DNA of 64,000 nt, taken from positions 248,001 through 312,000 of the forward strand of contig NOWV01000019.1 of NCBI GenBank assembly GCA_003344405.1, read 5' to 3'. Source of the DNA: Trichoplax sp. H2. Lineage: Eukaryota. The notes beneath the pieces are model-generated. The model searched no databases and was not told where the DNA came from. It worked only from the letters and a program-made list of their open reading frames with translations. Positions 488 to 49,989 of the stretch are shown here, piece after piece. Every line of letters starts with the position of its first letter. The stretch's first letter is position 1. The translations under genes were made by a program, and so were the position numbers.

Positions 488-1460
488 AATACTATCAAAT
501 AAGATAGAAAGAGGTATCATTAATTACTCAAGAAGCCAATCATTACTTCACAAAACCAATACAATATAATTGGTCATATTTATAGCAGCTTTTAACTTTC
601 CATAATTTACAGTACAGTCATCAGCCGTGTAAAACATGAAGATGACACTATCTTTCCACGTTACTTGATACTCACCATAAGGAATGGAAGTCGCAACGAA
701 GGATAGGAGAAAGATGAAAAGCCAACCGCTAGCGTTCTTGCTCACTTTTGACTACTGTAAAATAGTGTATAAGTTAACATATATATGACATATACACTAC
801 ACGTATGTTACGTTAACTGTTAACTAGTACAGTATCATAAATAAACAAATCCCGCCTTAAATCGCAAAAGGCTAATCGTGGAAGTTGTAGTGCTGCATAC
901 AGTACATACTGTCTGATGTCTACTGTGTACACATCATATGTTATGGAATGTAGGACCATTACTAATTACAATAACTGGTAGCATCCTGCTGGCGGTCTCC
1001 CTTATGTTTATTGTTCATCTACATTTTACTATATTAATTTACACTATATCCTGTATCCGTATAATTATGTTTTTCTTCAGATATGTATTATATTATAATT
1101 GTACAAGATGATGCTGATCATAACGTTAATGCATATTACTCGTTCATCCACAATGTCAAGCAAGATTGCAGACGTTCTTCCTTTAATGATGGCTGATTAG
1201 CATATTGACTTAATCTAGTGCAAACCCTGCTGTGCACAGTAATGTGATCGATGGCAGTCGATAGAATTGCATTTAGGAGATGATTGCAATTAAGCAATGA
1301 GAATACTGTAAATGGTTACCGATGTAAGACAGCATCATCCTGCTAGCACAAGATAATTTCTATCGCACCTCTGTACTAGGAACAAAGTGATATCAAGCGA
1401 CTCTTGTTTACTACAAAAAAAGTCAAGCCCGATGTAAACATCGAGCATACGCCTATATAG

Positions 1461-1963
1461 TAAATGGCTTCTAGAGTAATTCTTTGTTCGCAAAGATGAT
1501 TGCTGGTTAAAATAAAATCACTTGGTTTATCCTAATAGATGTAGAAATAATCAACGTGTTAATAAATGGCTTCTAGAGCAATTCTTTGCTGCCAAAGATG
1601 ACTACCAGTTAAAATAAAATCACTTGGTTTATCCTAATAGATGTAGAAATAATCAACGTGTTAATGAATGGCTTCTAGAGTAATTCTTTGTTCTCAAAGA
1701 TGACTGGTGGTTAAAATAAAATCGCTTGATTTATCCTAATGGATGTAGAAATAATCAACGTGTTAATGAATGGCTTCTAGAGTAATTCTTCGTTCTCAAA
1801 GACGACTACTAGTTAAAATAAAATCAATTGGTTTACCCTAATAGATGTAGAAACAATCAACGTGTTAATGAATGTTTTCTAAAGTAATTTCTTAGTTGTC
1901 AAAGATGACTACTAGTTAAAATAAAATTACTTGATTTATCCTAACAGATTTAGAAATAATCAA
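1461..1963. repeat. Tandem repeat, 102-bp unit, about 5 copies
   Basis: Unit T(A/G)AATGGCTTCTAGAGTAATTCTTTG...GTAGAAATAATCAACGTGTTAA starts at 1461, 1563, 1665, 1767 and 1869. Confidence 0.95.
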
Positions 1964-2988
1964 TGCGAAGAATTTACAAATGCGGTGACTTTACGCCTTA
2001 AAGTTAAATGAAAAGGCAAATCGCAAAAGAGACAGTTACCAGAAAGTAGCAAAATATCATAAATTAATGCGAAGACTAATGTATATGGAAAGGAATAGAT
2101 TCGAAAAATGGACATGGTTCATAATTTTTTGCATATAGTAACAATGGAACTGACTCATATGAGAGGACTAGTATGCATAATTGCATATGGAGATCTTGAT
2201 TTATAAACAGTTCAATGCACCTATAAAAATTACACATAGCCCTGAGATATGAATTTAGGGCAAACCTTGACTGCATCAATTTTAGACCTTAGTATATTTT
2301 AATTAATTTCTGAAATCAATCCCTTTGCCCAGTTGTCAATTTAATCAAGAGAACGAAAGCGTCCTTTCACTTTATTTAAGGCGATGCAAGTGTCGATAGA
2401 TTATCCTGAACTGCTATCTCTGGTCTAAAAGGCATTTAACCATTTACACAGCTCACTTATCACGAGCCAATTTCGATTCATTGCCTTAAACGCATGGCAT
2501 TAATATGTTATAAATGACGCAAATAGCAGATAAGATAGGACTAGCAAATCTAGCAATAATGATCGACCTGAGTTTCAATACCTTCTAGTGCTCCTACTTT
2601 AGCCATAAATCAACCTTTTTAACGAACCACTCTTGATATTAACCTTCCACTTGAGGGAATAATTATTTTCTAATGTAGTGATCAGCTGATTTCAAAGTGA
2701 GCTTGTCCTCAAACTACGTCAATAAAGGACATTTTGTAATTTAAAACTGTTCGATTCGATATGTAGTTATTTACTTTGTCTAAGAAAAAAGCTTTCGCAG
2801 TCTCATCAAAATAGTTTACTGTAGAAGAGTCATCAACCCCAAGCATGAAAATTGAGACGATAGTAACATATCATAAATAGCTATGATAATATTCATTTTG
2901 GATATTTGAATGCCTAATTCTAGTTTTCCGTAGCAGTTATATTCAATGCACTAGAGTAATATTGCAATCATATTGATACTGAACCAAA

Positions 2989-5132
2989 ATGCCGGATTCC
3001 TGCTGTGTGATAGGATGCAAAAATAGAAGAATAGGAAATCGTCTGAGTTTTTATCGAATACCGAGAGCATGCACTGCCAAAGAAATTCATCGTCGTCAAC
3101 TTTGGTTAAAAGCAATCAATCGATCCAATTGGTCTACCAAGAAGATTGCTAATGCTCGAATATGTAGCCAACATTTTACTACAGGTTTGTTCTCCCAGTG
3201 GAAATACTACAATATGCTCAACGCTGTACGCTGGAATAATAACCAGTAGGTCTGATCAGTTCTGACCTAATATCCGGTGTTAATTAGGGGTTGCATTATT
3301 TGGTCTTTCTACTATCTTACTAGGCACAGGTTTATCTTGTCCGTATCATGCAGCCTAATTTTAATTGTTGATGATATACAAGGTTATATTGTAAAGGGTA
3401 TCAGAAGATTTCATAACGATATCCTAACCGTATAGACTACAGTTACATGGTCAAACTTGAAGTATCAGCTATACTCGTATAAATAAGAAATTATATCCCA
3501 AATTATATCCCACAATAGTTATGAACACGATAAAGTGGATACATGGATTTTTTGATTACAACTAAACATCACTTTCTATCGTCGCTTAATTTAATACCGT
3601 GTTATCCATGAAATGACTAGCGATTATACTTTTCAACTAAAGATATTTTGCATTATTTCGCCAATTAGATAGTACTATCTCTGCCTAAAGCCATTGAGTA
3701 AGGCAAATAACACCCTATAATATGAATTATTATAACATTCAATCTAATTCTCATTTTGAATCTAATTTATTGCTAGGGAAGAGATCAGATAATCCCGATC
3801 ATCCAGATTATATTCCATCTATTTTTACATCTAATAAAGAGTTGAATATGACCGATCATCAGGAGATTCGTCAATCTGGAGGACTGACTGCTAATTCATC
3901 AATCAATCTTGGCAAAGAAACTCACTCCGAGGTTGGAAATAGAGTAATAAAGATAATAAAAATTATTGACTTTCAAGCTGGAGTACCACAGCAGCAATAC
4001 CATAGTAGACAAATCGGTGATTGATCTTTCTTACTTTGACTACTTTAATCCAATTGTTACATTTCCACTCCCATAAATAATGTCATTAATTTTCTTAGGT
4101 ATGCAAACGGAAAATAAAATATCTCTTTCTGTAGGAGTACAAACGCAAGACACTGATGGAGAATTGGAAACAAACTTAAAGCAAGCATATATAGAATTAA
4201 ATAACAAAAACGTAATAATAAGTGAACTACGACATGAAATTTTTGAATTAAACAGGAAATCAATCTTCTCTTGGCATTCAGTTAAATATAATTTTAAACT
4301 GTTTCGATTTCTGACTGGTTTACCCACAATTGAATCTTTTAATTGGCTGTTAGGGTTAGTTAGTAACCATGCTAAGATCATAAGAAAGACTCTAAGTTCC
4401 GAAGATCATTTATTAGCGGTATTAATGAAGCTAAAATTAGGTCTTACGAATGCTGATATTGCCTATCGTTTTGCAATTGAACCAGTATCTATTTCCTACA
4501 TTTACAATCATTGGCTTCCTAAGTTAGCAACTGCTGTTGGTCAATTAATTATCTGGCCAAATAAGGAAGCAATTGAAGAAAATATGCCAGCTTGCTTTAA
4601 ACGGAATTTTCCAAACTGTGTCGCGGTTATCGACTGTACAGATATTGCAATTGAAAGACCGAGTAACTTATCGGCTAAAGCTCAGACTTGGTCAAGCTAT
4701 CGGCATTCGAATACAATAAAATATTTAATCGGTATCACTCCGGCAGGAGCAGTTAGTTTTTTATCGTCAGGTTGGGGTGGTAAAGTATCCGATAATGAAA
4801 TTACATTACGATCTGGATTTCTGGAAAAATTAAATCAAAACGATGTTATCCTTGCTGACAAGGGATTCTTAGTGAAGAAAGAATTGGCTTTAAGAGGCGC
4901 TATATTAAAAATTCCTTCCTGCATAAGAGGTAAAAAGCAATTACCAGCAAGAGAAGTTGATCAGTCAAGGGAATTGTGCCATGTTAGAATTCATATTGAG
5001 CGTGTTATTGGTCGACTTAAAAGATTTAAACTGTTACAGACTACAATACCTATATCACAAGTGCAGTTATTAGATCATGTTATGATTGCTGTCGCAGGAA
5101 TAGTCAACATGAACCGCAGCATTATTACCTAG
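2989..5132 (+). CDS. THAP zinc finger + HTH + Harbinger-type DDE transposase (about 489 aa; exons 2989-3184, 3777-4016, 4099-5132)
   Basis: THAP: CCVIGC...FYRIP...W...ICSQHFTT|GKRSDNPDHPDYIPSIF, joined by a phase-1 GT-AG intron. HTH: LSSEDHLLAVLMKLKLGLTNADIAYRFAI. Catalytic motifs VIDCT (D at 4632), LADKGF (D at 4857) and RIHIERVIGRLK (E at 4998). The exon 2 donor (4016) is the least certain junction. Confidence 0.9.
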
Positions 5133-5509
5133 ATATATACATTGATATCTATTCCATTAATGGAGTCGAATTCTTAAGCACTCTTACTTTTTACTGCAGT
5201 AAAGATTATGTATCACACGATATGAATTTTATTAACCAACTTTTTGGCAATGAATTAATTAAGCGAAATACGCATGTAGCTATTAATATAATATAGAACG
5301 AGATGCCAGCATAACCAATATATATAAATCGGTGCTAACGTATTTATCTGGAAAAGTATGTATGAAGTGAGGAGGTAGCAATAAATAACAATCATAATCA
5401 GAGATAACATTGAACAATTAATAAATTCTTATAGGAAAGAGAAATTTAATATTTTATAGTAGGGTACACATGAAGTTGATAACCAAGGTAACAAACACTT
5501 CTTTAATTA

Positions 5510-5925
5510 ACAAGATTTTCTTACTTGTTTCTATTGAACCTTTTTTGGTAAAATAGCACTCTTTATTTACCTGATTTAAAATTATTGCAGGCATTAGCTT
5601 TTCAAGTAAAGTTCTTATTTCTTTAAATACTTATTCGACGGATTTTGCTCTCCAATATTGGCATCTTGAGTCCATATGAAAATAGTTGAAATAATTAGAC
5701 CCATCCACAAACTAGCAGTCATATTTGAATTGGATGTATTTGAAGGTTGATATTCAAAATTACGAACAACTACTCAGGAATCAGGGATTTTCTTTCTTGC
5801 TTTAGACTTGTAATTTCTGATAAAATAGCATTCTTAAATAATAGATTTAAATTACTGTAAGTCATGACTTTTCAATAAAGTTATCACTACTGCAAACCTT
5901 AATATTATTCCTCCAGCATTAATAT
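5510..5925 (-). pseudogene. Two degenerate tandem copies of the 3' end of the YqaJ gene
   Basis: About 5795-5920 resembles 6044-6168 (TCTTGCTTT.GACTT..ATTTCTG.TAAAATAGCATTCTTAAA...GATTTAAA...ACTTTTCAATAAA...CTCCAGCATT). About 5515-5735 carries TGGTAAAATAGCA, TGATTTAAA, CTTTTCAA, GTCCATATGAAAA and CAAACTA, as in 6067-6240. Confidence 0.75.
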
Positions 5926-6027
5926 TTTATATTCGTATGAAATAAATGATAATAGTTTAATTTGTAACAGTTAAAGGTAATCCTTTAGCTTGAAGATAGA
6001 TAAAGAAGGTAGCGAACACTTGTTTAA

Positions 6028-9000
6028 TTAAGAGGATTTCCTATCTTGCTTTCGACTTACGATTTCTGGTAAAATAGCATTCTTAAACACTTGATTTAAA
6101 CTAGGTAATAACTTTTCAATAAATCCATCGTTCCTCCAAACTCTTATTATAATTTTATCTCCAGCATTGTTACCTTGTGTCCATATGAAAAAATCACAAT
6201 AGTCCAACTCGCAAACTAACAGCAATCCTTGAACTTGATAAAAATATGGATGATTCTCTTTCAGTAACTTGCTTTCGGATATTGGGCAATCTTTATCCTT
6301 ATACCAATTAGTTAAGCCTTCCTTATATTTATAAGGGCAGATAACTTCTAAAGCACCTTTACCATGACATTCGCAATGGATAATACCATCTGGTGAGGCT
6401 GCAAATTGAGGAAATTTAGAATTGATGTGTAGACCTGTCGCTTTGAGCGTAAAATTGCCATGATTTTTACGCATGGTAACTAGGTAACAATTTAACGCGC
6501 TGTCTGTCATTTGCTTACTGTAAATAACTGCTGCATCATCATATTCGAGCTTATACTGCATTATACATTTAATTAAAGCTCTATTTGGATTATTTATGGA
6601 ATGAGCAATGCGATGAAACATGGAAGCGATAATTCGACCAGCACAGTGAACCTTCCACAAAGGTGATCGCTTGGGGAAGACTGTTACTGCGCATAGCTTA
6701 TCATAAGAATTTTGCGTATATAATTTTTTATATTCTTCAAAAGCATGATAGCTTATTGTTCGAAGATCTCGAGAGTTTAATTTTGCTTTTTCTGGATCGT
6801 ATAAACTTGTTATCGGCCTTGGAATAGAGCTCCAGTCATGCTGGATAATTCGCTTACCTTGCGATCCATTAGGAATGCCAAAATGGACTCTATTCGTCGT
6901 AAAACTTGTAAAAATAGCAGCATTTGGAGCAGCTACTTTTAAAGCGGTTAGCTGGATTTCTGATATACCTGCTGCACCAGCTGTTGGATCTGCGTAGCTA
7001 ATATTCATTTTCGTATCTTTAACACCATCTGTATGGGTGCTGTAAGGTAGTAAATCGCTACGCTTAGGTCTCTTAAAGCAAATCTTTTTGAGAGGTCGTG
7101 GCGATGTATGCGTTTTAGATTGATTCCAGGTACTTAATTTGCTCGACGATGTAGTTGTATGAAGTTCCAACTGAAAGTATGCTAGTAATTTGAATAAGAC
7201 AGCGGCTACATGATCACATGCAGACCCTAAGCTGTTTATACAAAAAGGTAAGAATTTCAATTTTTTGGTTTAGTTCTCAACAAGGATTTACTTATCGTCG
7301 TTACATTATATCGCAAAGAATATGGGAGAGATCAATCGGAGCATGGCTATTAACTAATTTTTTCAGCTATTTAACAGTAGCTAAAGCAATTATAAAGAAT
7401 TATTTTAATATAATATGCTAAAGCTTGTATATTATAGTTTTGTGATGATGTTAGGGTCCGTGAAATTTGTATAGTTTATCGTGAAGTAATCGAGGTAAAA
7501 AAATGATATAATTATATCTTTCTAATTATGCTAGGTTGACATATCAAAATTTTACTGTTTATAATTTATAAATGAGATCTGGCGTGGTTTAAAACCTAAA
7601 AATAAGGAATATTGGCGTGACTAAAACTACAATTTAGTTGAAATTTTAATATTAATCTAGGTATCGTCCGCAGCTTTCTTCTTCTTAGAGATTAGAATGT
7701 CTCAATATCGTCTACAGTACTAGACAAAATGACTTCATTGCATGGTAACTAGTACAAGTTTGCACCAACTGAAGATATTTTAACTTGAAATTTATTCTAA
7801 TCGCCGTATATTAATTAATTACTGACATAGCTCATGTTTTTAGTTACCCAATTTTTAGACGGATAAAAATTTATCCTTTCAGATAAAGACTTAAGACCTT
7901 TTTAGATAATATGCACGGAAGTAAAGCATTACCATTCTGCAACTAGATGGACGCATATTTACATGATGAATATTTACTTGTCAATGGAATTCGATCCGAT
8001 CTGGGATCGTCAAGGACTAAATTATGTAAAAGTCTCCTATATTATTCTCCAGAAATATCATCGATATCTACGAAACAAGTGATTTACAGTATAGTTTATT
8101 CACTGTCATCACTAGTCGAAATATTGAATATATCTAGAAAACAGTATTCTTGCTCATTTAAATAATTCTAAAATGGAACTAATCACTGCAGCTAATAATT
8201 AATTTGATTGTCGCTAATAGTGCAATGATTGAAAATGATCTTCATTTAGATCATAAATTGAGTGAGAAATTATTCTATACCACAGTTGTCCATAGATTTA
8301 GTTAGTAATGACTGTAAGGTGGTAGCAATTGGACTAGATAAGCAGCATGTATACGGCTAATTTAGTTTAATTTCGAGTCTTTTGAAAAGGGGTTTTAAGC
8401 TTATGTCGTCACATGTTCTGGAATACAACAGACATACGATGCTGTAGGTACTGCAGTATCTACTGTCATAAATAAAGACAGAATTTATAAGTAGCGCAAA
8501 CTAAGCATTTCCGACTCTGTAATAGCTTTTGAAATGAAAATTGTTTGATATTCCTAACTTTGCAAACTTTCTCGGCAGAAAGAGATAAAAATCGACTAGC
8601 AAAATTTCAATCACATTACACCTATACCTAATGTCTATTTCGAAGCACTTATTAGTATGTAGATAGTAAAACCTGATATAATTACTTACCCGGATTTACA
8701 AGTACAATTTGCAGTTAATATTGATCCTGATTTTTTGTTAGTACATATCCAGGCGTGGTAGAATTCTGCTTTTTTACCTTGCAGTGTACTGGACAGAATC
8801 TTTTTATTGATTTAAACAAATTGATGAAATTATTTATACAAAGTAAAGTAGTATGCGTAAGCCAGGACAAAAAAGAAAACATTATACGTTAGTACCTTTG
8901 ATTTCACAAAGCAGAATTGACATTCTACTTCGATGTCATGGTAATAGATGTCCTGTACATGTCCACAAAGGAAGTAACTATACGCTTTTAGAGATTTGTA

Positions 9001-9243
9001 TGCTTTGACAGTATCTTGCGTAAATTCACTTGTAGTATCTACAAGGTATTTATAGATATCAAGCCATGCTACATTAGGTAGCAGGTTGATATCGCGTTTC
9101 CAATTCTTTAAGGTAAAAGGATCAGGCAGACGTTCCTCCTTACTTGGAGTTAATTTCCGATCATATTGAAACTGTTGACTTATGTCCAAGGATTGATAAT
9201 AAGAAGATAAGTTAGAGGTAGCTACATCGATAGTACCTGCCAT
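6028..9243 (-). CDS. SWIM zinc finger + YqaJ/lambda-exonuclease-fold protein (about 553 aa; exons 9243-8896, 8799-8690, 7231-6028)
   Basis: Phase-compatible GT-AG junctions join LPDPF...WLDIYKYLV...KAYKSLKAYSYFLCGHV to ANCTCKSG|LGSACDHVAAVLF (SWIM CxC-x7-CxH split by the intron). This leads into YqaJ motifs W...GRIIAS, ASPDG, EVICPY, YFYQVQG, CDFFIW and LPE. Confidence 0.88.
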
Positions 9244-12200
9244 TATAGTATTGATTTGAGAAATGGGAAAGTATCTTGGCCACGTAATAGTAAATGTAAA
9301 ACACGACCTTGATATTGTACACGCATCAGTACTTTTGCCCTATCCGAATGAAATTATTTTGCTGAGATATTAGCTTTTAACGCATTCATATTCCTGCGAT
9401 TTGCAATTGTTATTTGTTAATTATTGATTTCATTTAATCTTAATATAATTAGATGGGAAAATTTTGCGATAAACGCGGTTACTCATTAGTTAGTGATTGT
9501 ATACTAGTCACATGCACTGTAACAAGTATTGGAATATAGAAAGTTGCCAGAATTTAAAACCGCAATATTTTTTTGAGCAGACTTTATTATCAATATCATT
9601 ACAGTAATGTCCTCCCCTGAGCCATGCCAGGTTCAATTCGATTTTATTGTGACATTGCTACTCTATTCGGAATGGTGCAAAGTCAACTAGCTGCAAGTAA
9701 ATCATAATTAATTAGTCCTTAATCACATCATCCACTGTATTTCTAATTAATTCTTTATAGATAGTCTACAAAATGGAAAAAAATTGTAGAAGAGATTCAT
9801 CCAGTTTTGCAATAAAATGTAGCCATGTAAAATTCCGGTTAATAGTGATTTTACACGTTTGAGCTCGATTCACCAAACAGCGACATAAAGTAGAAGTTTA
9901 CCTCTAGGCATATTTTATTATCTTATACTATTTCTCCCTAAATAGAAATAGAGAGATCGATCAAGTTTGTAAGGATGTACTATAATATTTCCCTTTTTGT
10001 TTTTGTATATAAGTGATAAATTTACGTTCGCTTGAAATATTAGCAAGATTACGCGTATGAGCCTATGAGGTCTAATCATATTGGGAATTTCAATCTCATA
10101 TGTTTAACTTTTGTCTGTTGCCTTCCTATTAACTTGGAAAATGATCCATCTAAAGATATCGTTCTCTTTTCCTGTCATTGTCCATAAGCAAACTGTACGA
10201 ATAAATTAATACGAGTTTAAAATACAGTTATATTATGATTTCTAACTCGCTAATTGAGAATAATAAAATTATTAATATAGAGAGAGTGGCACTTGTATTG
10301 GGTTCTATTGGTTCTTTATTAATTAATTATCAACGTATTCACAGATTTTATATGAACTGGTCAATTAAGTGATTGATGTTTACAGCGTTGTAATAAAGTT
10401 CTAAGATTTGTTACCCGAATAGTTACTTGGGGCTGGAGATAATACATTGGTTTATTAATTAATGTGGAACTACAACAGTGATCTGTTATAATTACTAAAT
10501 TAGCGACAATAAATAATAAGGATTTTAAAATGTTATTGGTTTTAATTTAGTAATTTACAGTACAGTATATCTAGATTGGTGCAGTTTATCACCTGTATTC
10601 ATGTCATGGCTAAGGGTTGAGATACACTTACGAGTGTTCCAGCGCTTCAATAAATATTCAATATCAAACGGAAATGCAAACTAGAACAGATCTCTACCTC
10701 AGAAATTATATCAGTGATTGAGCTATTCGACTTTGATCGCATGAGGTTTAATAAGAGTTATTAGAAGAAAATGGACGACTATTTCACTATGCTTTAACCT
10801 ATGCGCTCCTCATACATTAAACTACTTTACTGCCTGTGTTACGTATTCCGCCTATTGCCTTCTACATACATCTCGAATACTAGTGCATAAAAATGAGGGC
10901 AAAGCTTGTTACTGAGAGCTATTAATCCACAGTTGCAGCGTTGTATTTTATCTAACCTGAAATTGATTAATAACTCCTTCTACCTAATTTGGTTATAATT
11001 TTGTACCTTAGTGAATTACTTACAACGTACATCGCGATATCAGAGTTGTTGAAGTAAACCTCTTTGATTTGAACTATGGTGCGTAGTGTAGTCCACGCTG
11101 TAGTTATCGTAATGCTATTCCTGGATATTATATCATTCTCCTATTAGCTATGATTCTAATTATCTTATTGTTAATTTAATAAATTCATTCATTCATTGAG
11201 TACCGTAATTAGTAATCCGAAGGATAGGAGAAAATGAAATTATTTTTCTTATCCGTTTGTAAAACGCAACAATTCTAATTTTCGTGCCTCGTTCATGAAG
11301 TTGTTCAACTGCTAACTGCAATTATTAAAATAAACAATGATCATCCTGTCATTTATTGATGGAATATTGTATAGAACTTCTCCTTTCCCTTAGTGTTGTA
11401 ATTTAGTATTTGCAATCTGTTTTATGCAGTCAAGAACAGAAAGTTGCTAGTACTTGTATGGTACTACCGTGGTGTAAAAGGATTTAGCTTTGCTGTCCTC
11501 TCCGCAGTACCTTTCTAAGGCTTTTTATGTTGACCAGTTTGAGTGAATTATTCAGTTCAATAAGCTGTAAAATATGATGATCGTGTAAACCAACAGGTAT
11601 GGAGCAGAAGGAAATACAGTACTATGCTACCATCGACAACTAAATTGCATCTGGATGTCCATGGTACTACCCGTTGGTTCCGTCGTTCGTTATCTGAGTA
11701 ACTGTACAGAGCAGCAATTGGATTGTATCCATTAGTGGATTATGTTGATCTGCTGTTGGTGGACGATGAGTATCCAATAGGCGGATATGATATAGTTATT
11801 GCTGTCAGTGAATTCTGTATTGATGAAGTCAATAACCTGTAAGTTCATGTTTACCGGGTAAAGGGTATCGTGAAAAGTAGCGCTTTCCTCTCCAACTACT
11901 CTGCCACCCAAAGTATTGTGTCGATTCGACGTTGGAGTAGATTATAATGATTCACTGTCTATGTTTAACCGTAAATCATTCTCTCCGTATCTCACTTAGT
12001 GGCTTGACCTAGCATTTTTTACTTTTAGTACAGTTGTCTCTATACTGCCTTACAGCTCTGCCTGTTTATTAGGCTACAGTCCCTTTGTAACTTACTGCTA
12101 CTATGTATAACATATCCATATCGCTGAAAGTAATCTATAGGTTCAAAAATTCTGATGGTCTATCAGCATCACTATGAAGAAAAGGAACAATTATCCCTAT

Positions 12201-12590
12201 TTCAGCTGTCCTTCAACCGAAATTCGATTGCCTATCACCACCTTCTACACTTTTAATAAGCGCTTGTACAAACAGGAAGGTAGAAAAAGCTGCGGGCTGC
12301 TGTTGACCAAGACGACCACTTCTATCTTCCCTGATGAAGTGGACGTGTCCAATGTCCAACGTCCATAGTACAGTACTTTACTGTACAGTGTACAGTACAC
12401 AGTACACTGGCGTGTGAGCTACCGCATTTTGCTTAATCATACTGTAAGACAAACAGTACGCGTACAACGATACACAGTACAGTCCAAGTCTGCATTTTAA
12501 ATTTTCACTTACGTCATTCTACAGTCAGATTCAAGGCAGCCGGGTCACTCTGGTAGGGCTTGGTACTGTAACAAATTTGAGCGTAGAGGA

Positions 12591-20731: not shown

Positions 20732-23700
20732 CTATAGCTCTTCTGATTTGATCTGAAAATAACAAGCCTGTGCAAGTAATAATTAAGCAATAGAAAGTTA
20801 CATAGTTATCGAATAGCATTGCAATCTAGTAGCCCTATCTGAATAAGCATGTCTACGGTACTTGCTAAATAAATAATTAATGGCATCTTACAAATATGTA
20901 ATCACAAAATTACCTGTAATGTTGTAAACATCATATCTAGCTCCCCTAGTAGAACACTATCGTCAACCATATTTTGTATAAATAATATTTCTGATCCTAA
21001 CTGGCTTATTCTTTGACGAAATGATGTAAAACATAAACAGAAAGACTTATGAAATATATACAAGCCCTATCGATGTAAATTGCCTGAAAGGTCTTTAATA
21101 ACCTCGGTATTTAATATATAATCGTTTAAACTACTGGCTTACTCTGCCCTTACAACCACGAAATGAAATACCGGTAAAATATCATCCATTGCTTTTAAGG
21201 TTCCAGAATCATTCCAGAAAGTATCTACTGCCTACAGTCATCACAATAAATCAAGAAATCAATTACAGCTGTAGCATTAAAAGTTGTACATATCTGTTAA
21301 ATTAAAAAAATGCATCTTGTAACAAACATGGCCTACCTTAAATATTTCCGAAAAGCAGTCCTTAACGACTAGAAGCTTCTGCATTGGGCTAAATTTGGTA
21401 CTATTGCATAATAGTAAAACAGTAAGGGGCAATTTTAATTTTTATAGGGTATTGTGCTATCACTGCGATTATGATAATATTCCAGACATATTTTTACAGA
21501 AACTTCGAAACCATAGAGGACAAGTTGCAATAACTCCAACGTATAATAGTACCTAATTTGTTGCAAAGTAGAGATAGCATCTGTGTAATGTAGACAATTT
21601 TCGCATTCGTTTGGTTCTCCGTTCTCATCCTTTTCAGGAATTAACCTGAACTTTCTACGTTTAAATAAAACGTTAAATAGATCGTATTTTTTAGTGTGCA
21701 AAATGTGCATAACAATACTATACCTACTAGCAGCAAAAGATTCAATCAAGGTTTACTAACTTGTTTATTCCTAGCTTTCGCATTAAAATCAGGTCGGTGT
21801 ACTTTGCCAGTCGTCGTAACTTTCTTTTATAAGATTCTTCCTCTGTCTCATTGTTTAAAGCATACAAAGTGAACAAGGGAGGGTATATTCGGGGTAAAAT
21901 TAATGGATGCAATAGGCTAATACTGCTGACAGTTTCTTGTGCTTCTAAAAGTTGTGGGTCATCGTCGGAATTTGACACTGCTAACTCACCATCAACAGGT
22001 AGATCTGGAAATAGTATCCTGGATTATCAAAGAAATGAGTCATTTAATCAATCTATTGTTCTTATCGCCTTACGGCTATAAATAATACCTTAAACTCTCG
22101 TACAATCTCCTAATCATTGATTTAGCTTCACCAATAGCATGGGGTAATAATAAACGATGATTAGCAGCAATCCCTAAGTAGCTGTATCGGAAAGCTTCAA
22201 CTAAAGAGTCAACAAGCCTTCCCAGTGGATGAGTACCATCATCGAAGGCCTGTAATTGCATAAAAATTAAATGATTTAATTCTAGTTACAAGTACTCAGA
22301 AATGGTGCTTCAGTCAAATACTTTGCATTTGAAATACTTTAGTAATTACAAGATAGTTGCATAAACTTATACCATGTATAAGTAAGTACCTTTGATAAAT
22401 AATGCATTAAAGCCTGCAAGTCTGTTCCTTTTATATCTGGTGCAACTGTTAAATCAACATCAGAGTCTAAAATATCACTTCCAATGCTTTGAGATGATCG
22501 CGAAATTGGAAGTGCTGGTACTGCAGCTGGCTTATTCTTTAATTTCTCCATTCCGTCAGTAATGTTTTGCCAGGCACTTTTTGAATCGATTTTACCTCGA
22601 TGAGCACCAATTACCAAACGAAACTGTAAAAATAATGATTCCCACTTCTTATCAGGATTAACGGCGTAATTATTTTCTTCGGATGATAATTCAGAAGGGC
22701 TAATACAGTAGTGCATATAAACAAATAAGGTGTGTTATAATTGCAGATCTATTTTTTAAGTTTTAAGTGTTCCATTATATATACATAACTTATGTATTTT
22801 TATTGCAGTATCGACAAATCGTATATGAATCTAACAATAAGCCTTACCTCGGAAGCATATCATAAAATGATCTCTCGCTATCGAGATCAGACATATTTTG
22901 CTTGTAGAAGGATCCATTAATTTTAATGCTATTGCCCCATTTTCCGTTGAAAGATCCTTCAATGTAATTTCCATTGGGAAGTGTTAAAACACCCTAAAAG
23001 GACACATCAGAAAGAACAATCAATATAAGTACAGAAGCCAAAGAATAAAGATTGATAAATCAATAAATAACATTAAAGATCTTGGTTTAGAATGTAATCA
23101 TCAAAATCAGCTGTGTTACAGCTACCTTTCCACTCAATATAGCATCAGATGAAAATTCACCAACAAATTTAGTTTTATCATCAGTCAATAGAATTCCGTT
23201 ACCCTATAAAAGTTAGAACGTTATTAAGTTTAGAACAATAGTCCTATAAAGGTAGGTTTATCGGCAAGCTCCACCTAACAACTCACAACGAGTCGATCAT
23301 TGCTGAAAGAACCTGCGAGAAATATACCATCCAATGTTATTACAACACCTTCACCATGGCGAGTATCATTTGACCAAATGCCCATATATCTTTTACCCCT
23401 ATACACGTAATTCACAGGATTCGGATCTTTAAAGCTATGCAAAATATCATGCAATATATGATGTTGTACTGACTTGTGGTCATAGATTCCATATCCAGCT
23501 TTATTATCGCAAAGCCATTCACCAATGTAAAAACTACTATTTACGTTGGTAACAGTTCCTTGCTTCATAATGCCATGTCCATGTCGCATATCTTGATACC
23601 AGAAGCCATTGTATTCATCACCATTGGCGTATCTAATTTCGTATTAAGTAGAAATTTACGTTTATAATACGAACATAAAGGAGTTCTAAAAGTGCTTGCT

Positions 23701-26700: not shown

Positions 26701-29676
26701 GTATAAAATTCTATCTTGAATCAATAATTCATGTAAGATTTTTCGGATATCATCGTTTTCATTTCTATGAGATATTTTAAGATATTTAAATTGTAAGATT
26801 TTTAAGATACAAATATTGACCTTGAACGAAAACATTTTCAATAAGTGCCTTAACAATCGGAACATTTCTGTTATCGATAATTATTTACAATTTTTTAAGT
26901 GATTTACCTTGCAGACACAAAACAGCTTTGACCATAATTACTAGCAATGGCGCATATATAATCCTATACAATTCAATTTTTTGAGATAAATCTTTAAAGT
27001 ACTTTGTAATAACATCTTATTCAGTCTAACCTCTTTTGGAACTGTAATATTAGCATAGGTGGTTTTCTTATCCCTAAAATTGACATCAACTTAAAACGTT
27101 AGTTGGAAGAGTCATTAATCTTGTACAGCTATCACTCATGCTGCTTCTATCTGCTGTCGCTACAAACTAATTGACTTGAGGTTTCTTCGATAAATGCAAA
27201 TTACGGTACAGTAGGTTGATTGATATAATTACACCTGCTATGATATCGTTGCTATGCCCTCAATTATTAGTATATACAGTTATACGTACGTTACAATATT
27301 ACCAATACGATAGATTTGATTTTGCTGATTAGCTGCAAATGTTAACAGGGATGTATTATCTTCTCCAGTTGCAACACCTGAAACTCTTTGATCGACTCCA
27401 ATCGAAAGCTAAAGGTGGCAGAAAGTCAAACATTACAGTTATAAAATTATGTTTCTACGCTTATTACTTCTAACTACGATCTTCATTCCGGCGAAGAATG
27501 TTGCTTTCAATGAACAATACAGTGAGATAAGTCGTACTCATGCAATTTTATCACGTCTAAAGTTTATACCTCAACTTGTCGAGGTATCAGTGATATTTCG
27601 CCAGAAACTCCTAACTGTCCATTTGAATTTCGTCCCCAAGCATAGAGCTAGAAGGAAAAGAATATAAAACATAGGTTCTTATTTCAACGTATAAGACTCG
27701 ACAACTGTAAATGATCAGTTCAGATCAGACTACGAATTCTAGATAAATAATTAGTCCATATTAATGGACATGTACAATTAATAATTGTCAACAGTAAGTG
27801 TTTGACTACTATTGCGATAGCCTTTTGATATTCACAACCTGGCAATCGCTAGTAAATGCAATAGAATGGTAACCACCAGCGGAAACTTGTTTGATAGCCA
27901 ATCCTTTCATAGATTCAATACAGCAAGGAATGTGTCTGTTGGAGGTGATAACAATGTTATGATAATTGTGAAGCTAGCATCAATCCATCCATTTAAATAA
28001 GTATATATTAGACATGTCTGTTGAATAGATATCACTATTGGGTAACGCCTGATGATGATGATGGATTAATGACGTGATAGTAATGATATAGCATAAACGA
28101 TGACTTTATATACGACCAGCAAGTCCTAGAGAGCTGCATGAAATTGTCATGATAACAAATAATAAATGATAAAAATTATAAATAACTGAGTAGTAGAAGC
28201 TCTTTTACGGTTACGAAATGCCACGATGTGATTGCTGGTCAATAAAATGCCTAAAGTGTATTAATTTATTTTTCAATTTACTACCACTATTATCATGGTT
28301 GATGTAGAGTATTAGTATCGACGCATCTGTTGACGGTGGTAATTACTGTAATTGGTTAATTACCACCTAATGAGATGTCTATAGCACAATAACTGAAGTA
28401 ATAGAATTACATAAGGTTTAAAATACTGTATGCTAGAAAATGGGTCATTTTCATTTCTACACTTCATGCAAGTCTACATGATAGGAATCAACATTGATTA
28501 CCTTAACATTACAGAATCCGTCATAAAATTACATCATGGGATGTCAATATTACATTATCCTTTCAATTTACTGATTTCTGAATACCTTGCTGTTTTATCG
28601 CCAAGACCTAATTGGCCATAGTTATTATTACCCCAAGTCCAAACTTGTGTAATTTGCTGGCTATAGGTAAAGGTAGAAGATCGTGGTTTAGGCGAAATCA
28701 GAATAAAATCTTCATTGGCGTCTGTACTGTCACTGTTCTCATTTAATGGTGTCAAGGTATAATCGACTGAATAAGTATCAGGTGGTGTTATGAAAGCAGG
28801 AAATGGATTAATATTACTACTGGATCCACTTCGAGAGGTTTTCCTTTTGCTTTCGATTGGAGTTGTATTTCGCGTTGCATTGAAGGTGGAATCGACTTTA
28901 TTATTCTTTCGATTAGGAGGGGTGATCTTGGAAGGAGTCACTGGTGGCGAATCGACATCATGGCGTCGATAGGATACAAGAATATTATGAAATAACCCAC
29001 AATCAACTTGAGTGACAAATTCATCGCTTAATTCATTAACACATAACGGCTTGGCATTGGTACTAGCGTCGTCATCGGCAAGACCATAATCACATCCTTG
29101 GCCCCATGTCCAGCATTGGCCATTGGAAGAAACGGTAATCGTATGCGCTTTGCCACAAGCAACTTGAACTAATTCAATACGTGACGGATGATCACCACCA
29201 CAACTGCATATCTGCAAATCCGAAGGAGAACAAACTGAAACTTGAACAGGTGCTTGATAGAATAAATCATCTCCCACACCACATTGACCTTGTGCATTAT
29301 CGCCCCAACTATACAACTGGCCGCCATCATTGATACAACAACTATGTTGACTGCCAGCAGCGATGAAGGTTACGTGCATTTGTCGAAAAAGAGGCAATAA
29401 AGTAAAGCATTTTCTATCGCTTAAATCATCCAAACCTAATTGACCATAATTATTATTACCAAGAGCGAAAATTTGACCATCATTGGTCAACATTAGCGTA
29501 TGCTTTTGGCCTAAACTAATTCTTTCAATTCGCCTTGAAGAACGGAAAGAGGCAACCAGTCGAGGCGATGGTAGTCTTGGCCAATGATCCCATCGATACA
29601 CTTTCATTTCATCGTTTTGTTCGCCTTCCTCGTAGACTTGATAGCATTCTTCTTGTTCACTATCATTCCCTTCCAT
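20732..29676 (-). CDS. ALS2: Alsin (RCC1 repeats, DH/PH, MORN repeats, VPS9 domain), multi-exon
   Basis: RCC1 repeats in 29676-28586 (ISLGQKHTL, GNNNYGQLG, VACGKAHT, VWTWGNNNYGQLG). MORN repeats at about 22850-24200 (RHGHGIM, YIGEW, YMGIWSNDTRHGEG). HPLGRLVDSLVEAFRYSYLGIAANHRLLLPHAI, LILPRIYPPLFTLYAL, VPS9 MDDILPVFHFVVVRA, and C-terminus ACYFQIKSEEL* at 20732. Upstream exons cannot be excluded. Confidence 0.95.
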
Positions 29677-29980
29677 CCCTTCAATCTTTTTTTCTCAAAG
29701 CTCACCCAATTTTACGCCAACATGATAGTAGAAAAAGCAAAATAACAACTCTGTGAAAAATTTCACTGGTCCGCCATAAAAGTCCAATGGTAGAATGAAA
29801 TCAACAAGGCCAAGGGCAACACTTAGCCTATGGGGCCTGGTGATGGTGTTCGATATAACCGGGTGTTGAATACTTTCCTATACTGTAGACTAGTGGGCTG
29901 GATGGCCTGGGCTATGGCAAAGCCGGTAGCGTCCAATATAGTGTATCGTACTGGTATGCTAGTATAGTGTATCAGTATAG

Positions 29981-34021: not shown

Positions 34022-37000
34022 TTACTTTTTTTTTTTCTTCTTTTCGCTGGAAACCTATAGAATAACAAGGGTAATTATTGAGTTAATTAGATTGCTGCTA
34101 GTCACTTATCCGAGATAATGAAACGGTCATACAGATAGTAATTATCCCTCACTTTTTCCGATGATTCTGCATCTTTCTTGGCCTTTTTTGTCTTTTTCTT
34201 AGCAGACCCCTACAGAAAGCAAGGGACTCGTTATTATTCATTCCTCATTAACAATTATCACTAAAAGTATTTAAATACTATATACCGCATCTGGAGATAT
34301 AGGAGTATCAGATTCCTTCTTCGCCTTTTTCTTTTTCTTATCTGAGCTAACGATCTAAGCAAAGAGGAACGTAATAAATTACCAAAGTGCATCGCTATGT
34401 ATCGTTGACAAACGTTAAGGAAGGCATATACGTATTCAGAAAAATTGGTTTTATACCATTTCAGGTTCTTCTACTATACTGGCAGTTTTCGATTTATCCT
34501 TTTTCTAATTAATATTTTCAATATAATGGAAAAGCCATTGAGAATACTGCAAACCGATATAAGGATAATGTTCTACCGACTTTGTGTTATATTGAAAGAC
34601 ACATACCTTATCCTTCTTCTTTTGCTTTTGTTCCGTTGGGGTCTACAAATAAAAAGATTACAAATTAAATACCGAGAATTTTACATATACGCGTACGTAA
34701 GTTAATGCACCTTCCAAAAACTACTATGTTATTTTGTAATTAGTAAAGTTTAAAACTGATGCATCGGAAAATATTACAATATAGTACCTCAACATTCATA
34801 GATTCTTCTTCTTTAGCTTTCTTGTCTTTCTTCTTCTTCTCTTTGACTGGAGTCTAATAAATAGACAACGTAAAATAGTTAAATACTTGCGATGTAATTA
34901 AGCCAACAAGCATTACGTCCAATAAGCATCTATCTTTCTACCGTTAATGTTTACAATGTAGGATATCAGTTATCAAGTACTCGTAATACCTGAAAACTTT
35001 CTGAAGCAGCTGCTTCACTGGAGCTTTTCGCTTTCTTTTCTTCAGACTATTGGAGAAAGATCGTAATTAATGAACAAGCTCTACAATGAATATCAGGGAT
35101 ACTATATCACACTAGAATTATCGCTACATTTCTAACCCAGTTAGCCTAACTCTAACCCTAGCTTCAGCTTAATATTTAGAATTTATATAAGGTCTAAAGG
35201 TTGCAGCAATAACGTACACTATCGTATATTGCTGTCTTAACTGAATGCAAATATTGTGTCCTAGAGTTTAAGAGCAAATGAAGAAACATCGTGATTACGT
35301 TTAAATAACCTTAGCTGAGGCAGCTCCAGATTTATCTAATTTTGCCTTCTTCTTTTTCTTCTTTGGGGTTTCTTCTAAAACTTCTATCAGCTTCTTTTTC
35401 TCACTAATGCTTTCTACGCAATCGGATCAATACAAAGTTGTTACTAAATTTTCTCAATCTCAGAAAACGAGTACTATATAACAGAAACAAGTAAAATAAC
35501 TTTACCATTAGCTTCCGCAATGACGGAAGTATCTTCCTCACGTTTACGTTTTTTACCAACAACGAAATCAGTATCAGGATTATAAGTGCGGACTTGACTA
35601 TTATGAAATGAAATCATATTAAGTTTCTGCAAGACAAATTCATGACTAGATCTAACATTGCTATCTCCGAAATGAAATTAGATGGCAGTCATGGTAGCTT
35701 ACCTCTGATTAGTATACTTGTCAAATTTGGCGCTGCTTTTGGCACTACCACTAATTTTCTTCATCTAACATTACCCAATAAATGATAGTCAGTACAACTA
35801 ATTTTACAAGATAAGAACAAAGACGTAATTAACGTTGCATACATGGCCTTCTTCTAAACTCTTTAGGCGTATCTCAAGTTTTGCTCTTCCATCAATTCCA
35901 ACATCAGTATTTGATTCTTCGCCTAGTGCATCGACTCGAGCAGCTAGTGAAGTTTTAGCAGCCAGCATACGTGATATCTACAAATAGTTTTTTTAGAGTA
36001 AATTGCGTAAGTAATTATTGCTTCGTAAAAGTTTCAATGGGTTTTATTACAAGATACATTAACGGCGTACCTTTCCTTTATTCTTAGGATTAGACTGACC
36101 AACTAGTGAAGCATGATAAATAAGACCATATTTTGGTGTGTCATGTTTGGTTTTTAAAGCTCTAATTTTGATCAATAAATTGGAATAAGTAAAAATGTTA
36201 TTGAGGTTCACTACGTATTAACTGTAAAAATTAACCGAAATAGTGCTTTTTCGGCGCCAAGAATTTGCACAGTTGAGGCTGGATATTTAGCAAGATTGAG
36301 CAAGGAACCTACAAGAGATTACAGAAGAAACTTTTAGTCAGTAAATGACCACAGCACCATTTCTACTCATTCATAATTACTATACCAGCATGTGCAATTA
36401 ATCTTGCTCCCACCAACTCGCCAACTAATAGTGTTAAATTAGGAGCAATAGCGGTCATGCGATTCTTAATATATTCGTACAGTTCTGTACGATAATTACT
36501 GACTTCAATGACCTATGATAGAGACACAGAGCAATCCTATTTATTCTCTAATTATCTCTACATTAAAAACTTTATTTTGACATTTTACTAACCTGATTGC
36601 ACAAATATTTGATGTTTTCAATATCATCTACAGATATCTATCAAAACAGAGATCATTAAGCTGAGTTAGCTTAAGCTACATGCACTATGTTAAAAAGTAC
36701 TATTTCGTAATAAGGGATGTAGTAGTACGAATTTTGTCTACCTCTGTACCCATGGAAATTTCTGCAGCTTCTTTAATCTCAGCCTCTACTTCTTCGGGAA
36801 GAATCGATGATAAATCTGTACTCGACGTATTGTTTCTCATACCTTATAATCATAGATAAACATTTATGATCAATATTCATTAATTTATACATGTCTATAT
36901 AATAAAATTGCTTAGTAATTAGCTGACATACCGATCGCATTGATTGTCTTGACAAAGACCAAGTGGTCCGATACAATTTTGCCCAATTCAGGGAAATGCC

Positions 37001-39033
37001 AACCATACCATTCACGGCAACGCATAACGTAATTGTTCAATTCTTTATCTAAATCATCTAGTAAGGCTATGGTTGGAATACAAAAGCATTTGTAAATTAC
37101 AGGTTTAGGAAAATAATATAACTTCAGAACGTCGATGAAAGTAAAGTACAGTAGTAATTTTATTACCATCTTCTAGTTATTTAGGTAGTCATTTCACTTA
37201 CATATAGCTTGAACGATCATTGTGTCGACTTTGTCTGGGCTAAATTTCAACTTGTAACGTGAGAGGCTATAGTATAAATTATAAATAGCAAATAGAGATG
37301 ATTTCACTTTCAAAATGCAATATAGAAATGGATAAAATTAAGATTATGTATAAGCAAGTGGCTACCTATGAGCTAGACCAAGAGCCATAGCACTCATTTC
37401 TTTTTCCGGCAAACCTTTCATAGAATAGGTGATTAGTCAATGTTTTTTAACTATTCAGAACTATGAAATTTCTTTAGAGAAAGAAAAAGTCTTACCGGTT
37501 ATCAATTCGTTCATTTGACTTCGTATTCCTCTAGTTAATTCATGTATGGCATTGTTACAAACACAAGCTATCCCAGTTTTTTCCTAAGTGCAAAATCGGG
37601 ATTTGTAGTAAAACAATAACCCCCAAATTGGTTTGTAAGGAAATTAAGCTATCTAAACGATTTATAAAGTAGTAGCAAGTGAAGATGACGAAACTAACTT
37701 TGATGGCATTGCCTAATTTAGCATCAGCTACGGCAAGTTCGTCGTGTATATCTTTGGCATAGGCCTTCTTCAAGATTTTTTTCAGTTTCTTACTGACTTT
37801 ACCTTCTACAACTGCCGTTGCAGCTATAATATGATTGAAAGGAAAAGAAGGCAACATTTACTCTAGCGTTCAGTCATTGTTGATTTTGGTATCTACGACT
37901 ATCTATCTCACAAGATGTTGCAAAAGGAGCTATGACCTATAAGATTGCTTATGATTGTTATTTGTATTCACCAGTAGAGTAACTTGTGCTTAAATCATGA
38001 ACAATTTACTATTTATACTCTATCTCTATGCACGTAAAACTCCAGATTTTATACAGGTGCAATGCATATTGCACAATCCAGAAGAGAATAGCGAAAGGAA
38101 AAAAATTACAAGTTGATATCATTTAATTTAAGATTGAAACTAACCAGCCAAAGCCTCAGTGGTATCTTCGAATTTCTGAAAGTGTTTTAGCTTGATGCTA
38201 TCACGAGTAGAAAAATTCATTATTTGTAAGGCTATTCGATTACGGTTTGTCTGATTGACTGGCTAAAGCAAAGACTCCAAGCTAGCAAGCTAGTCTATAC
38301 AGTTTATTATAACGTTGATGGTGGAAAAGGTGATGACTATCGCTACCCTTTAAGAGAGTCAGGTAAGACTTTCCAGGTAGTAAGATAATCCGTACACATT
38401 CTACTGTAGCTTTTGCTGAGAAATAGTAGCGGATTACCTGGAGAAAATAGTGCAACCTCTGTAGACACTACCTATTGTAAGATGCACAGTGTACAAGGCA
38501 TGATATTTCAACTGCATCCACTAGACTGTGGTTATTATTTTTGATTGCAGCAAGACAGTCCAATACGGCACAACTACTCATTTCAAACGCAATGGAAAGA
38601 TGTGCCTTGACTCATTGATTTCATGACATGACAGTACAGTAGTACACTGATTTATTGTATATGCAAATACAGTGATTACAAACTAAGGTACCAATGGTGC
38701 TAGCTTGGCAAGATAATCAGCCTACAGTAGGTATTTACAATTTGTTGGCTTCATCTGGTGAAATGAATTCCTTATACAAGTTGTCAGCCTGTTGTAATTT
38801 CTTCTCATTCAAGACCTAAAAAGTTACCAAAAAAAAAATGCTATGAGCTCTTGGATGCTTGCATTGTATATTGTTCATGGATCAGTCGGTTGCCGTAAGA
38901 CTATTCTAGGCAAAACCTATGGTATCCTTCAGTCTACGTTGTGCCTATCATGCTTGAAGACAAGCCGATTGATGAAGCATTGGAGTACCTTAAAGATTGC
39001 ATATCCAGACGATGTTTCAAATAGAACCAACAT
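34022..39033 (-). CDS. NOP58: Nucleolar protein 58 (box C/D snoRNP core protein), multi-exon
   Basis: [143 protein letters not shown], then a Lys-rich tail ending [10 protein letters not shown]. Confidence 0.97.
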
Positions 39034-48873: not shown

Positions 48874-49989
48874 TTATTTTGTACGTGTTATGATATATAA
48901 AACGAGAAATATAATTGGATTAGTTAAACCGTTCACTGTGAATAGTAGAATGGATATGGTACCAATTGGACGAGATTGTGATATATCTATAAGTTTGTTG
49001 TCTGATGTAAAAAAAATAACCCAAAATACGCTTGGTGTCCAGCATAAAATATTACTTAAGACAATTAATCCATTGCAAATAATGCTATATTCAGCATATC
49101 GATTAGAACGACGAAAGTTGGTCAAAGATGGGCTTTCTTGCTTCTGTGAATCTAATCGAGCTTTACGCAATCGTAAAGTAATTACGATATAGACAATTAG
49201 AGTAATCAAATATATAAGGGCAATATTCATGGTAATAAAAATAGCGAAACCAGCGACATTAGTATTTTGTAAATTATCAATTAAGCAAAGATTACTGTAC
49301 CAGCTAGGTAATATTGGATGTGATTGATTAAAATGACGATGAGAATAATACGAGATAGGTTCCGAAGTAGCCGTATTAATGACAATGATACAAGTAGCGC
49401 AACCCCAACCGATGGCAAGTAGCCAAATGCCGAAACAAATCATTAGGCCACCTTTGAAAGTTGAACGACGATTTAATTTGAGTGGATAAAGAAGGAGAAT
49501 TAAACGATCGGCAGTAATGGCCAATGTGAAACAAGCAGAAGCTAAACACCCTGCAATAGCAATAAACCGTAAAAAGTGGCAGAGACGACTTTGGCTCCAT
49601 CTTGATGGTCGATCATTCCAAACTGTAATGCATCCATTATAACTACCATTGCATTGCGTAATTTCATCTACCGTCAAGATAGAAATGTCACAAATAGCCA
49701 ATATAGTAATATACAAACATGAGAAGATATCAGCTAGACTTAAATTAAAAAAAAATAATGATGCTACTCGGCTTAATTTACGGTCTTTTTTCTTTACGAG
49801 TATAAATGCATAACTGAGATTTCTACGTTTTGAACTTGTATGAGTAGCATGATTAATTCTAACCGATGGTCGTATGTATTTCCATGTCATCTTAATAACA
49901 CCAATATTAGCTAGTAGACCAAGTGGTCCGCATAACCATGCAATAATTTTAGCAGTCAATACACGATTAAAAACATAAAGACTGATCAT
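48874..49989 (-). CDS. Single-exon rhodopsin-family (class A) GPCR with an LGR/RXFP-like 7TM region
   Basis: 371-aa ORF with seven hydrophobic segments: GLLAN (TM1), NLSLAD (TM2), W..S.LC (ECL1/TM3), ITADR, CWTP (TM6) and NGLTNPIIF (TM7). Confidence 0.88.
   Translation of the reverse strand: MISLYVFNRVLTAKIIAWLCGPLGLLANIGVIKMTWKYIRPSVRINHATHTSSKRRNLSYAFILVKKKDRKLSRVASLFFFNLSLADIFSCLYITILAICDISILTVDEITQCNGSYNGCITVWNDRPSRWSQSRLCHFLRFIAIAGCLASACFTLAITADRLILLLYPLKLNRRSTFKGGLMICFGIWLLAIGWGCATCIIVINTATSEPISYYSHRHFNQSHPILPSWYSNLCLIDNLQNTNVAGFAIFITMNIALIYLITLIVYIVITLRLRKARLDSQKQESPSLTNFRRSNRYAEYSIICNGLIVLSNILCWTPSVFWVIFFTSDNKLIDISQSRPIGTISILLFTVNGLTNPIIFLVLYIITRTK

Follow-up and report, generated by a model that had tools for sequence, protein, structure and literature searches.

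Two genes lie tail to tail at positions 2989 to 9243 of a stretch of Trichoplax sp. H2 DNA (contig NOWV01000019.1, positions 248,001 to 312,000; this whole 64,000-nt stretch is termed the window, and all positions given below are those of the window). Gene A encodes a THAP-DDE transposase-type protein, and gene B encodes a SWIM-YqaJ protein. The locus is probably an immobilized, host-retained (i.e. co-domesticated) derivative of an ISL2EU transposon in which the partner of the transposase appears to be nuclease-dead. Among eukaryotic cut-and-paste transposons, ISL2EU has received comparatively little study. In a published survey (PMC4482050), it is placed in the PHIS (PIF/Harbinger-ISL2EU-Spy) superfamily, and 25 families from 14 animal species are described, with a mean element length of ca. 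4.84 kb, terminal inverted repeats (TIRs) of 6-259 bp that mostly begin with GG, and AT target-site duplications (TSDs) arising at the target A/AT/T. The survey leaves the role of the second open reading frame (ORF) in transposition unexplained.

The layout of the pair was compared with that of related loci in metagenomes. Eighty loci encoding relatives of gene A were used, of which 65 had at least 1200 nt of downstream sequence and 15 had too little room. In 62 of the 65 testable loci, the transposase is immediately followed by a YqaJ-type gene on the other strand; three were without one. The convergent transposase/YqaJ pair is the canonical ISL2EU layout, and the notion that genes A and B are unrelated neighbors, adjacent by chance, is excluded for practical purposes, because this layout is shared by so many loci. 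The published structure of ISL2EU agrees: ORF 1 is described with DDE, helix-turn-helix (HTH) and THAP domains and ORF 2 with a YqaJ exonuclease domain (PMC4482050, PMC4122938, PMC9179366). An ISL2EU origin of the Trichoplax pair is supported by the domain set, the layout and this two-ORF description, and the assignment to an ISL2EU-type system made in an initial annotation of the window was upheld by the same content and by the shared convergent layout. The spacer between the stop codons (5133..6027), which comprises the 3' untranslated regions, spans 895 nt in Trichoplax vs. a median of 207 nt in loci of the transposable-element (TE) type.

Exon borders of both genes were defined using stop-to-stop ORFs and hand-placed GT..AG sites. 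Gene A (2989-5132, forward strand) has three exons, and its 1470-nt ORF encodes 489 residues with a single stop at the end. Exon 1 (2989..3184), which was assigned from Pfam and colinearity with homologues, begins the reading frame with its start codon and encodes the greater part of the THAP zinc finger (C2CH, with CC at 3001-3006 and C..H at 3163-3174). Exon 2 (3777..4016) contains the end of the THAP domain (IPSIF, 3812-3826) and a poorly conserved linker; it is based on the splice model, homologues and RNA. Exon 3 (4099..5132) encodes a coiled-coil-like stretch, followed by Pfam matches to HTH_Tnp_4 (ca. 4389-4532) and DDE_Tnp_4 (ca. 4629-5108) and by the stop codon (5130-5132). The two introns are 592 and 82 nt long, both with GT..AG borders, and the first junction (A1, HFTTG/KRSDNP) is colinear with full-length THAP-DDE proteins of Hydra and fish (P0062, P0069, P0072). 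When the exon translations were compared to Pfam, THAP scored 52.9 bits (cutoff 23.9), and HTH_Tnp_4 48.1 bits (cutoff 27). DDE_Tnp_4 was matched along its full profile (positions 1-158 of 158) at 150.7 bits. The DDE triad is complete, with one aspartate in VIDCTD (4626-4643), the other in ILADKG (4848-4865), and the glutamate in HIERVIG (4992-5012). In a 15-sequence alignment, gene A retains 61 of 61 invariant columns, the triad among them. The protein is 45-54% identical to many ISL2EU transposases of fish and Hydra. No identical entry was found among database proteins of 188-601 residues, the best match being 72% identical. Gene A may thus be unannotated or mis-modeled in public Trichoplax annotations, or it may be annotated at a length below 188 or above 601 residues. 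Proteome-based surveys may have overlooked the pairing of the two genes, since gene A is not among the database proteins of 188-601 residues.

Gene B (9243-6028, reverse strand) also has three exons, with a 1662-nt ORF encoding 553 residues. The model is identical, letter for letter, to a database protein of that length (P0001, "hypothetical protein TrispH2_002946 [Trichoplax sp. H2]"). Exon 1 (8896..9243) encodes an N-terminal alpha/beta domain (residues 1-116), delineated by homologues and by an AlphaFold2 predicted local distance difference test (pLDDT) score of mostly 84-95; homologous domains occur in other proteins, e.g. P0177 at 49% identity. Exon 2 (8690..8799) encodes beta strands and, as judged from column conservation, the N-terminal half of the SWIM motif (C148-x-C150, from 8706). 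Exon 3 (6028..7231) supplies the second half of this motif (C158-x-H160, to 7210), two linker motifs, a domain of the lambda-exonuclease fold, and the stop codon (6030-6028). The introns (96 and 1458 nt) have GT..AG borders, and P0005, a homologue of the intronless type, aligns colinearly across both junctions (B1 and B2). These results agree with the initial annotation, in which two intact, spliced, convergent genes were described, with four predicted introns and stop codons ca. 0.9 kb apart.

The domain content that had been claimed at the same time was clear for THAP, HTH_Tnp_4 and DDE_Tnp_4 and less so for gene B. The proposed profile check gave matches to YqaJ as well as DDE_Tnp_4; for P0001, however, the YqaJ match was weak (24.0 bits, cutoff 22) and confined to the C-terminal half of the profile (positions 78-147 of 150), and SWIM (PF04434) fell below its cutoff (18.2 vs. 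19.6 bits). The SWIM motif itself (C148-x-C150..C158-x-H160) is present, interrupted by intron B2, and its columns are kept in 104/108, 104/108, 110/113 and 109/113 representatives. The AlphaFold2 model of the gene B protein had a mean pLDDT of 82.8, with values above 90 across most of residues 290-545. The C-terminal domain was delimited at residues ca. 290-553 (6822-6031) using Pfam, profile matches to the PDB, and Foldseek. In Foldseek, the model matched the PDB entries 3sm4, 3syy and 1avq (E-values of 5e-9 to 6e-8, target-normalized TM-scores of 0.59-0.73); the best matches were lambda exonuclease (top hit 3sm4, E-value 5.3e-9) and LHK-Exo (target-normalized TM-scores of 0.70-0.73). The profile of the gene B family, when compared with solved structures, identified LHK-Exo (3syy, E-value 1.2e-23) and lambda exonuclease (1avq, E-value 9.6e-15). 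The lambda-exonuclease fold is confirmed for the modeled domain.

The catalytic center of this domain is degenerate. Among 1.84 billion representatives, 6857 relatives of P0001 were found at an E-value of 1e-3 or below, of which P0002 was the closest (70% identity) and the next was 40% identical. P0001 and P0002 were aligned with 149 other representatives of the family. In the alignment of the family profile, R349, E395, D434, E448 and K450 fall on the active-site residues of lambda exonuclease (with a chain-numbering offset of 2), which we take to be R28, E85, D119, E129 and K131 in the native numbering. Lambda exonuclease uses D119, E129 and K131, together with E85, for PD-(D/E)XK catalysis, and R28 binds the 5' phosphate. 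Column 349 is R in 125 of 131 other sequences and C in both the gene B protein (6645-6643) and P0002. Across the segment S391..T395 (6519-6505), column 391 is G in 136/137 others and S in both proteins, and column 395 is E in 133/137 others, T in the gene B protein and M in P0002. Column 450, part of E448-V-I450 (6348-6340), is K in 134/136 others and I in both. Two further columns deviate: 354 (T in 127/131 others, I in the gene B protein, T in P0002) and 489 (Q in 119/126 others, L in both). W345, G351, R352, D434 (132/137), E448 (133/135), C451, P452, Q485 and Q487 are retained by both proteins.

Both proteins also end ahead of a C-terminal PHD-like finger that is carried by TE-type homologues. 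Their Pfam YqaJ scores were 24 (P0001) and 20 bits (P0002) vs. 63-89 bits for the TE-type proteins P0003, P0005 and P0006, which also had PHD-like matches. Loss of K450 is rare (2 of 136 other representatives), and in gene B it is accompanied by loss of the PHD tail. Because the residues for binding the 5' phosphate and for catalysis are gone, the gene B protein appears to be nuclease-dead, i.e. it should no longer be able to digest DNA. A search of the ESM Atlas returned solely cnidarian-rich YqaJ clusters and nothing new.

The relatives at ca. 70% identity were used to place these losses in time. P0001 and P0002 are identical at 257 of 366 positions, with no gaps and the same C-terminal residues. 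The closest relatives of the gene A protein, P0016 (72%) and P0017 (69%), are 89% identical to each other and have derived motifs in common with it. The clusters of P0001, P0002, P0016 and P0017 contain 1-2 member sequences; some TE-type clusters contain 66-116. P0002, P0016 and P0017 are regarded as putative orthologues. Because P0002 has the same losses, the inactivating changes in gene B would be older than its split from P0002, and the frames would have stayed intact since. Losses followed by intact frames would fit selection for a non-catalytic role.

The same comparison bears on the explanation that the locus is a functionless, decaying transposon relic with both frames open by chance. 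A degenerate YqaJ active site would be in keeping with decay, as would the low RNA cover on gene A and the lack of any listed on gene B. The frames, however, comprise 1042 open codons over six exons with correct GT..AG borders; P0001 and P0002, although they differ by 30% over 366 residues, show no gap or stop and end alike; the residues from W345 to Q487 enumerated above are kept; and the four indels that distinguish a second version of the locus (see below) all avoid the exons. A decaying relic is accordingly quite improbable.

A stronger rival, which is nonetheless unlikely, holds that the pair is a resident ISL2EU copy, autonomous or recently immobilized, in a lineage for which nuclease activity of the second protein is dispensable, and that the 70% relatives are copies of sister transposon families and not orthologous host genes. 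A general repeat search around the pair produced nothing convincing as a TIR. In inverted local alignments, the best score for the flanks of the pair was 26, a value reached by 82 of 100 shuffles. The score was 28 for gene A alone (reached by 30/100) and 26 for gene B alone (75/100), and the inner flanks scored 24 (shuffle mean 23.2). A 12-mer scan for ends of the form AT+GG...CC+AT yielded one candidate with 3 mismatches in 12, so there were no ends to anchor an AT duplication, and a scan for TIRs with GG 12-mers gave just matches with 2-3 mismatches. As positive controls, ten TE loci were treated likewise. Two were clear: L038 scored 65 (best shuffle 31) and L057 scored 72 (best shuffle 35), and in both the two-gene module is enclosed by TIRs of 70-80 nt; L025 was marginal (34 vs. 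33), and seven gave nothing. The lack of a TIR or TSD above chance is unfavorable to a resident element. The initial annotation had spoken of a full two-protein module; taken as a working ISL2EU element, this description could not be sustained, as no TIR or TSD was found and three active-site residues and the PHD tail are gone.

The control loci are of use in their own right. The elements in L038 (7328-7399 / 11045-11125) and L057 (7390-7460 / 10677-10757) are 3.4-3.8 kb long and, as ISL2EU elements, seemingly complete: they have the 70-80-nt TIRs, the convergent layout and a seemingly intronless YqaJ gene, and they are suited as reference active-type elements. Numerous related copies come from one assembly (contig names starting WLWD01).

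The size of the module and the labels of the listed database matches also speak against a resident element. The coding span in Trichoplax is 6.25 kb with four introns, vs. 3.3-3.8 kb for the modules in L025, L038 and L057 and the published mean element length given above. Only 1 of the 15 matches listed for gene B carried a Trichoplax label (P0001 itself), and among the 120 listed for gene A there were none. The rarity of the K450 loss, coupled with loss of the PHD tail, argues in the same direction. The module does not qualify as an intact transposon; it is apparently present as one locus and presumably immobile.

One apparent empty site or splice was rejected. A contig joined position 1163 to 5513 by way of two 21-nt matches (1143-1163 and 5513-5533) with 26 foreign letters between them; it was seen in all four runs, DNA runs included, and came from elsewhere. 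The matches are 4349 nt apart, and the first is situated within an acyl-CoA dehydrogenase-like exon. The contig probably represents a paralogous locus or transcript combined with a chance match.

The locus was also present under a second organism label. In the DNA run X2, a single 7156-nt contig spanned 2721-9876; it differed from the window by 44 substitutions and 8 gap letters (ca. 99.4% identity), and its four indels (at 2769, 4036, 7457 and 9703) were all outside exons. The contigs on either side had diverged similarly (11/1270, 7/903 and 5/673). Word depth over the module was 30.9, vs. 26-38 in the flanks, word depth not being equivalent to copy number. The regions in which the X2 contigs break (ca. 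2665-2720 and ca. 9877-9928) were examined for hidden TIRs, and none were found. An unbroken contig across the module, with depth and divergence like those of its flanks, is a further point against a resident transposon.

Expression was assessed in assembled runs. X20 was accepted as RNA because the neighboring acyl-CoA dehydrogenase gene is spliced in it (491 to 676). A contig in this run joins 4015 to 4098 with GT..AG borders; intron A2 (4017-4098) is thus spliced, and the donor at 4016/4017 is confirmed. Two further X20 contigs lie on exon 3 of gene A (4814-4979 and 4969-5204). The RNA check that had been proposed for the four predicted introns was therefore positive for A2; over A1, B1 and B2, no RNA contig was seen in the runs examined, which is evidence neither for nor against them. 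X18 and X19 were rejected as RNA evidence, as introns and intergenic DNA are covered in both and they look like low-depth DNA.

Binding of the two proteins was examined by co-folding, as the initial annotation had suggested. Exon 3 of gene A (343 residues) with P0001 scored 0.77, and the best of three controls scored 0.00. In microbes, the mark used for a positive result is attained by 51 of 78 solved complexes but also by 2 of 108 mismatched pairs. Among eukaryotic pairs, it is attained by 39 of the 65 solved ones that have no like complex and by 2 of the 126 unrelated ones; for blind neighboring genes, the figure is 7 of 44. Agreement between the runs extended to at least 63% of contacts, with a pLDDT of at least 70 for the partner. 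On the gene B protein, the predicted interface lies in the linker, at its two conserved motifs (195-208, encoded by 7107-7066, and 239-265, encoded by 6975-6895), which are disordered or of low confidence in the monomer model; I203, F205, L250 and A257-F260 in these motifs are conserved throughout the family and in P0002. On the gene A protein, it consists of the DDE domain and a conserved C-terminal strand. We know of no solved complex of this kind, and a score owed to memorization by the predictor therefore seems unlikely. The co-folding results support the prediction that the two proteins bind to one another.

Several points weigh against host retention of the pair, and a number of them would be at home with a resident ISL2EU copy. 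A transposase that retains every catalytic residue is also expected of an active element, and here both ORFs are intact, the 61 invariant columns and the triad are kept, and the layout is that of the transposon. The TIR control was clear in just two of the ten TE loci, so TIRs shorter than ca. 12 bp could have been missed, and TIRs down to 6 bp are reported for ISL2EU (PMC4482050). As that survey offers no explanation of the function of YqaJ in transposition, a transposon lineage might persist without nuclease activity. Instead of being orthologues, P0002, P0016 and P0017 could stem from a related transposon family that is still mobile. Copy number was estimated from the word depth of contigs and from the unbroken contig. 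The locus shared under two labels says little about age, because the labels are only ca. 0.6% apart. Just eight of the 44 substitutions in X2 are listed, seven intronic and one exonic (I396V in gene A, adjacent to the second catalytic aspartate, the single listed coding difference). No RNA contig is listed over gene B in the runs examined. Finally, invariant columns are no more frequent in the predicted interface on gene A than expected (11 of 66, with ca. 12 expected).

Host retention nevertheless remains the preferred reading, and the pair would then serve a host function. In the mechanism envisaged, the gene A protein would contribute a THAP finger that recognizes specific DNA sequences, together with an HTH domain and an RNase-H-like DDE domain with its three carboxylates. 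The gene B protein would contribute its N-terminal domain, SWIM finger, linker and lambda-exonuclease-fold domain, the chemistry of the latter having been lost. The two short linker motifs would dock on the gene A protein, at its DDE domain and its C-terminal strand, and the pair would act as a heteromeric DNA-binding complex, as in HARBI1/NAIF1, and not as a mobile element. A more far-reaching proposal can be put forward only tentatively. It states that this is the first co-domesticated ISL2EU pair, kept tail to tail since the ancestor of several placozoan lineages, with a catalytically complete transposase and a nuclease-dead adaptor devoid of R28, E85, K131 and the PHD finger, and that ISL2EU transposases in general recruit their second protein by docking of its linker motifs on the DDE domain. 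The locus can be viewed as a natural separation-of-function variant: the exonuclease chemistry appears to be gone, and the fold, the SWIM finger and the two linker motifs have been kept beside a complete transposase. It provides a testable idea for the second protein of ISL2EU, namely that it may bind the transposase through its linker.

The surroundings of the pair are of host type. ORFs at 2-523, 23278-23643, 28558-29694, 36915-37172 and 48877-50055 (all on the reverse strand) and at 58883-59143 (forward strand) have host-type domains, i.e. Acyl-CoA_dh_N, MORN, RCC1, Nop and 7tm_1, plus MIR at slightly under the Pfam cutoff. No other transposase domain and no reverse-transcriptase domain was detected by Pfam in the 64 other ORFs of at least 70 residues in the window. 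These ORFs matched solely host-type families; the window is, as far as examined, as transposon-poor as initially described. A stretch at 12330-12430 (core ca. 12368-12399), rich in GTACAG/TACTGTAC, had a word depth of 2995 in X2, vs. ca. 31 around it, and in all four runs dozens of contigs continue from it, to either side, into dissimilar sequence. The stretch is thus a short repeat, or a satellite unit, with many dispersed copies.

Neither an ISL2EU-derived host gene or gene pair nor this Trichoplax pair was found in the literature searched, although the supplementary species lists of PMC4482050 might name Trichoplax. Compared with ISL2EU elements, the Trichoplax locus has the same THAP-HTH-DDE transposase and YqaJ protein in convergent orientation. 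It differs in that no TIRs or AT duplication were found, in its apparent occurrence as a single locus, in its four introns and 6.25-kb coding span, and in a YqaJ protein that is without the equivalents of R28, E85 and K131 and without the C-terminal PHD finger.

With the PD-(D/E)XK 5'-3' exonucleases (lambda exonuclease, LHK-Exo and YqaJ), the gene B protein shares the fold and the equivalents of D119 and E129. The equivalents of R28, E85 and K131 are C, T and I in gene B, and the top structural match, 3sm4, is itself an inactive K131A mutant of lambda exonuclease. Unlike the phage enzymes, the gene B protein also has the N-terminal domain, the SWIM finger and the linker.

Domesticated PIF/Harbinger transposases with a partner are known from vertebrates (HARBI1/NAIF1) and from Arabidopsis (HDP1/HDP2 or ALP1/ALP2). 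As in these systems, both genes of a PHIS element would have been kept by the host, a DDE-type domain is present, and binding of the partner is proposed. The partner is different, with a SWIM finger and an apparently dead exonuclease here and Myb/SANT there, and the Trichoplax genes are still adjacent in the transposon layout. If domestication is true, the pair would be the ISL2EU counterpart of HARBI1/NAIF1 in an early-branching, transposon-poor animal.

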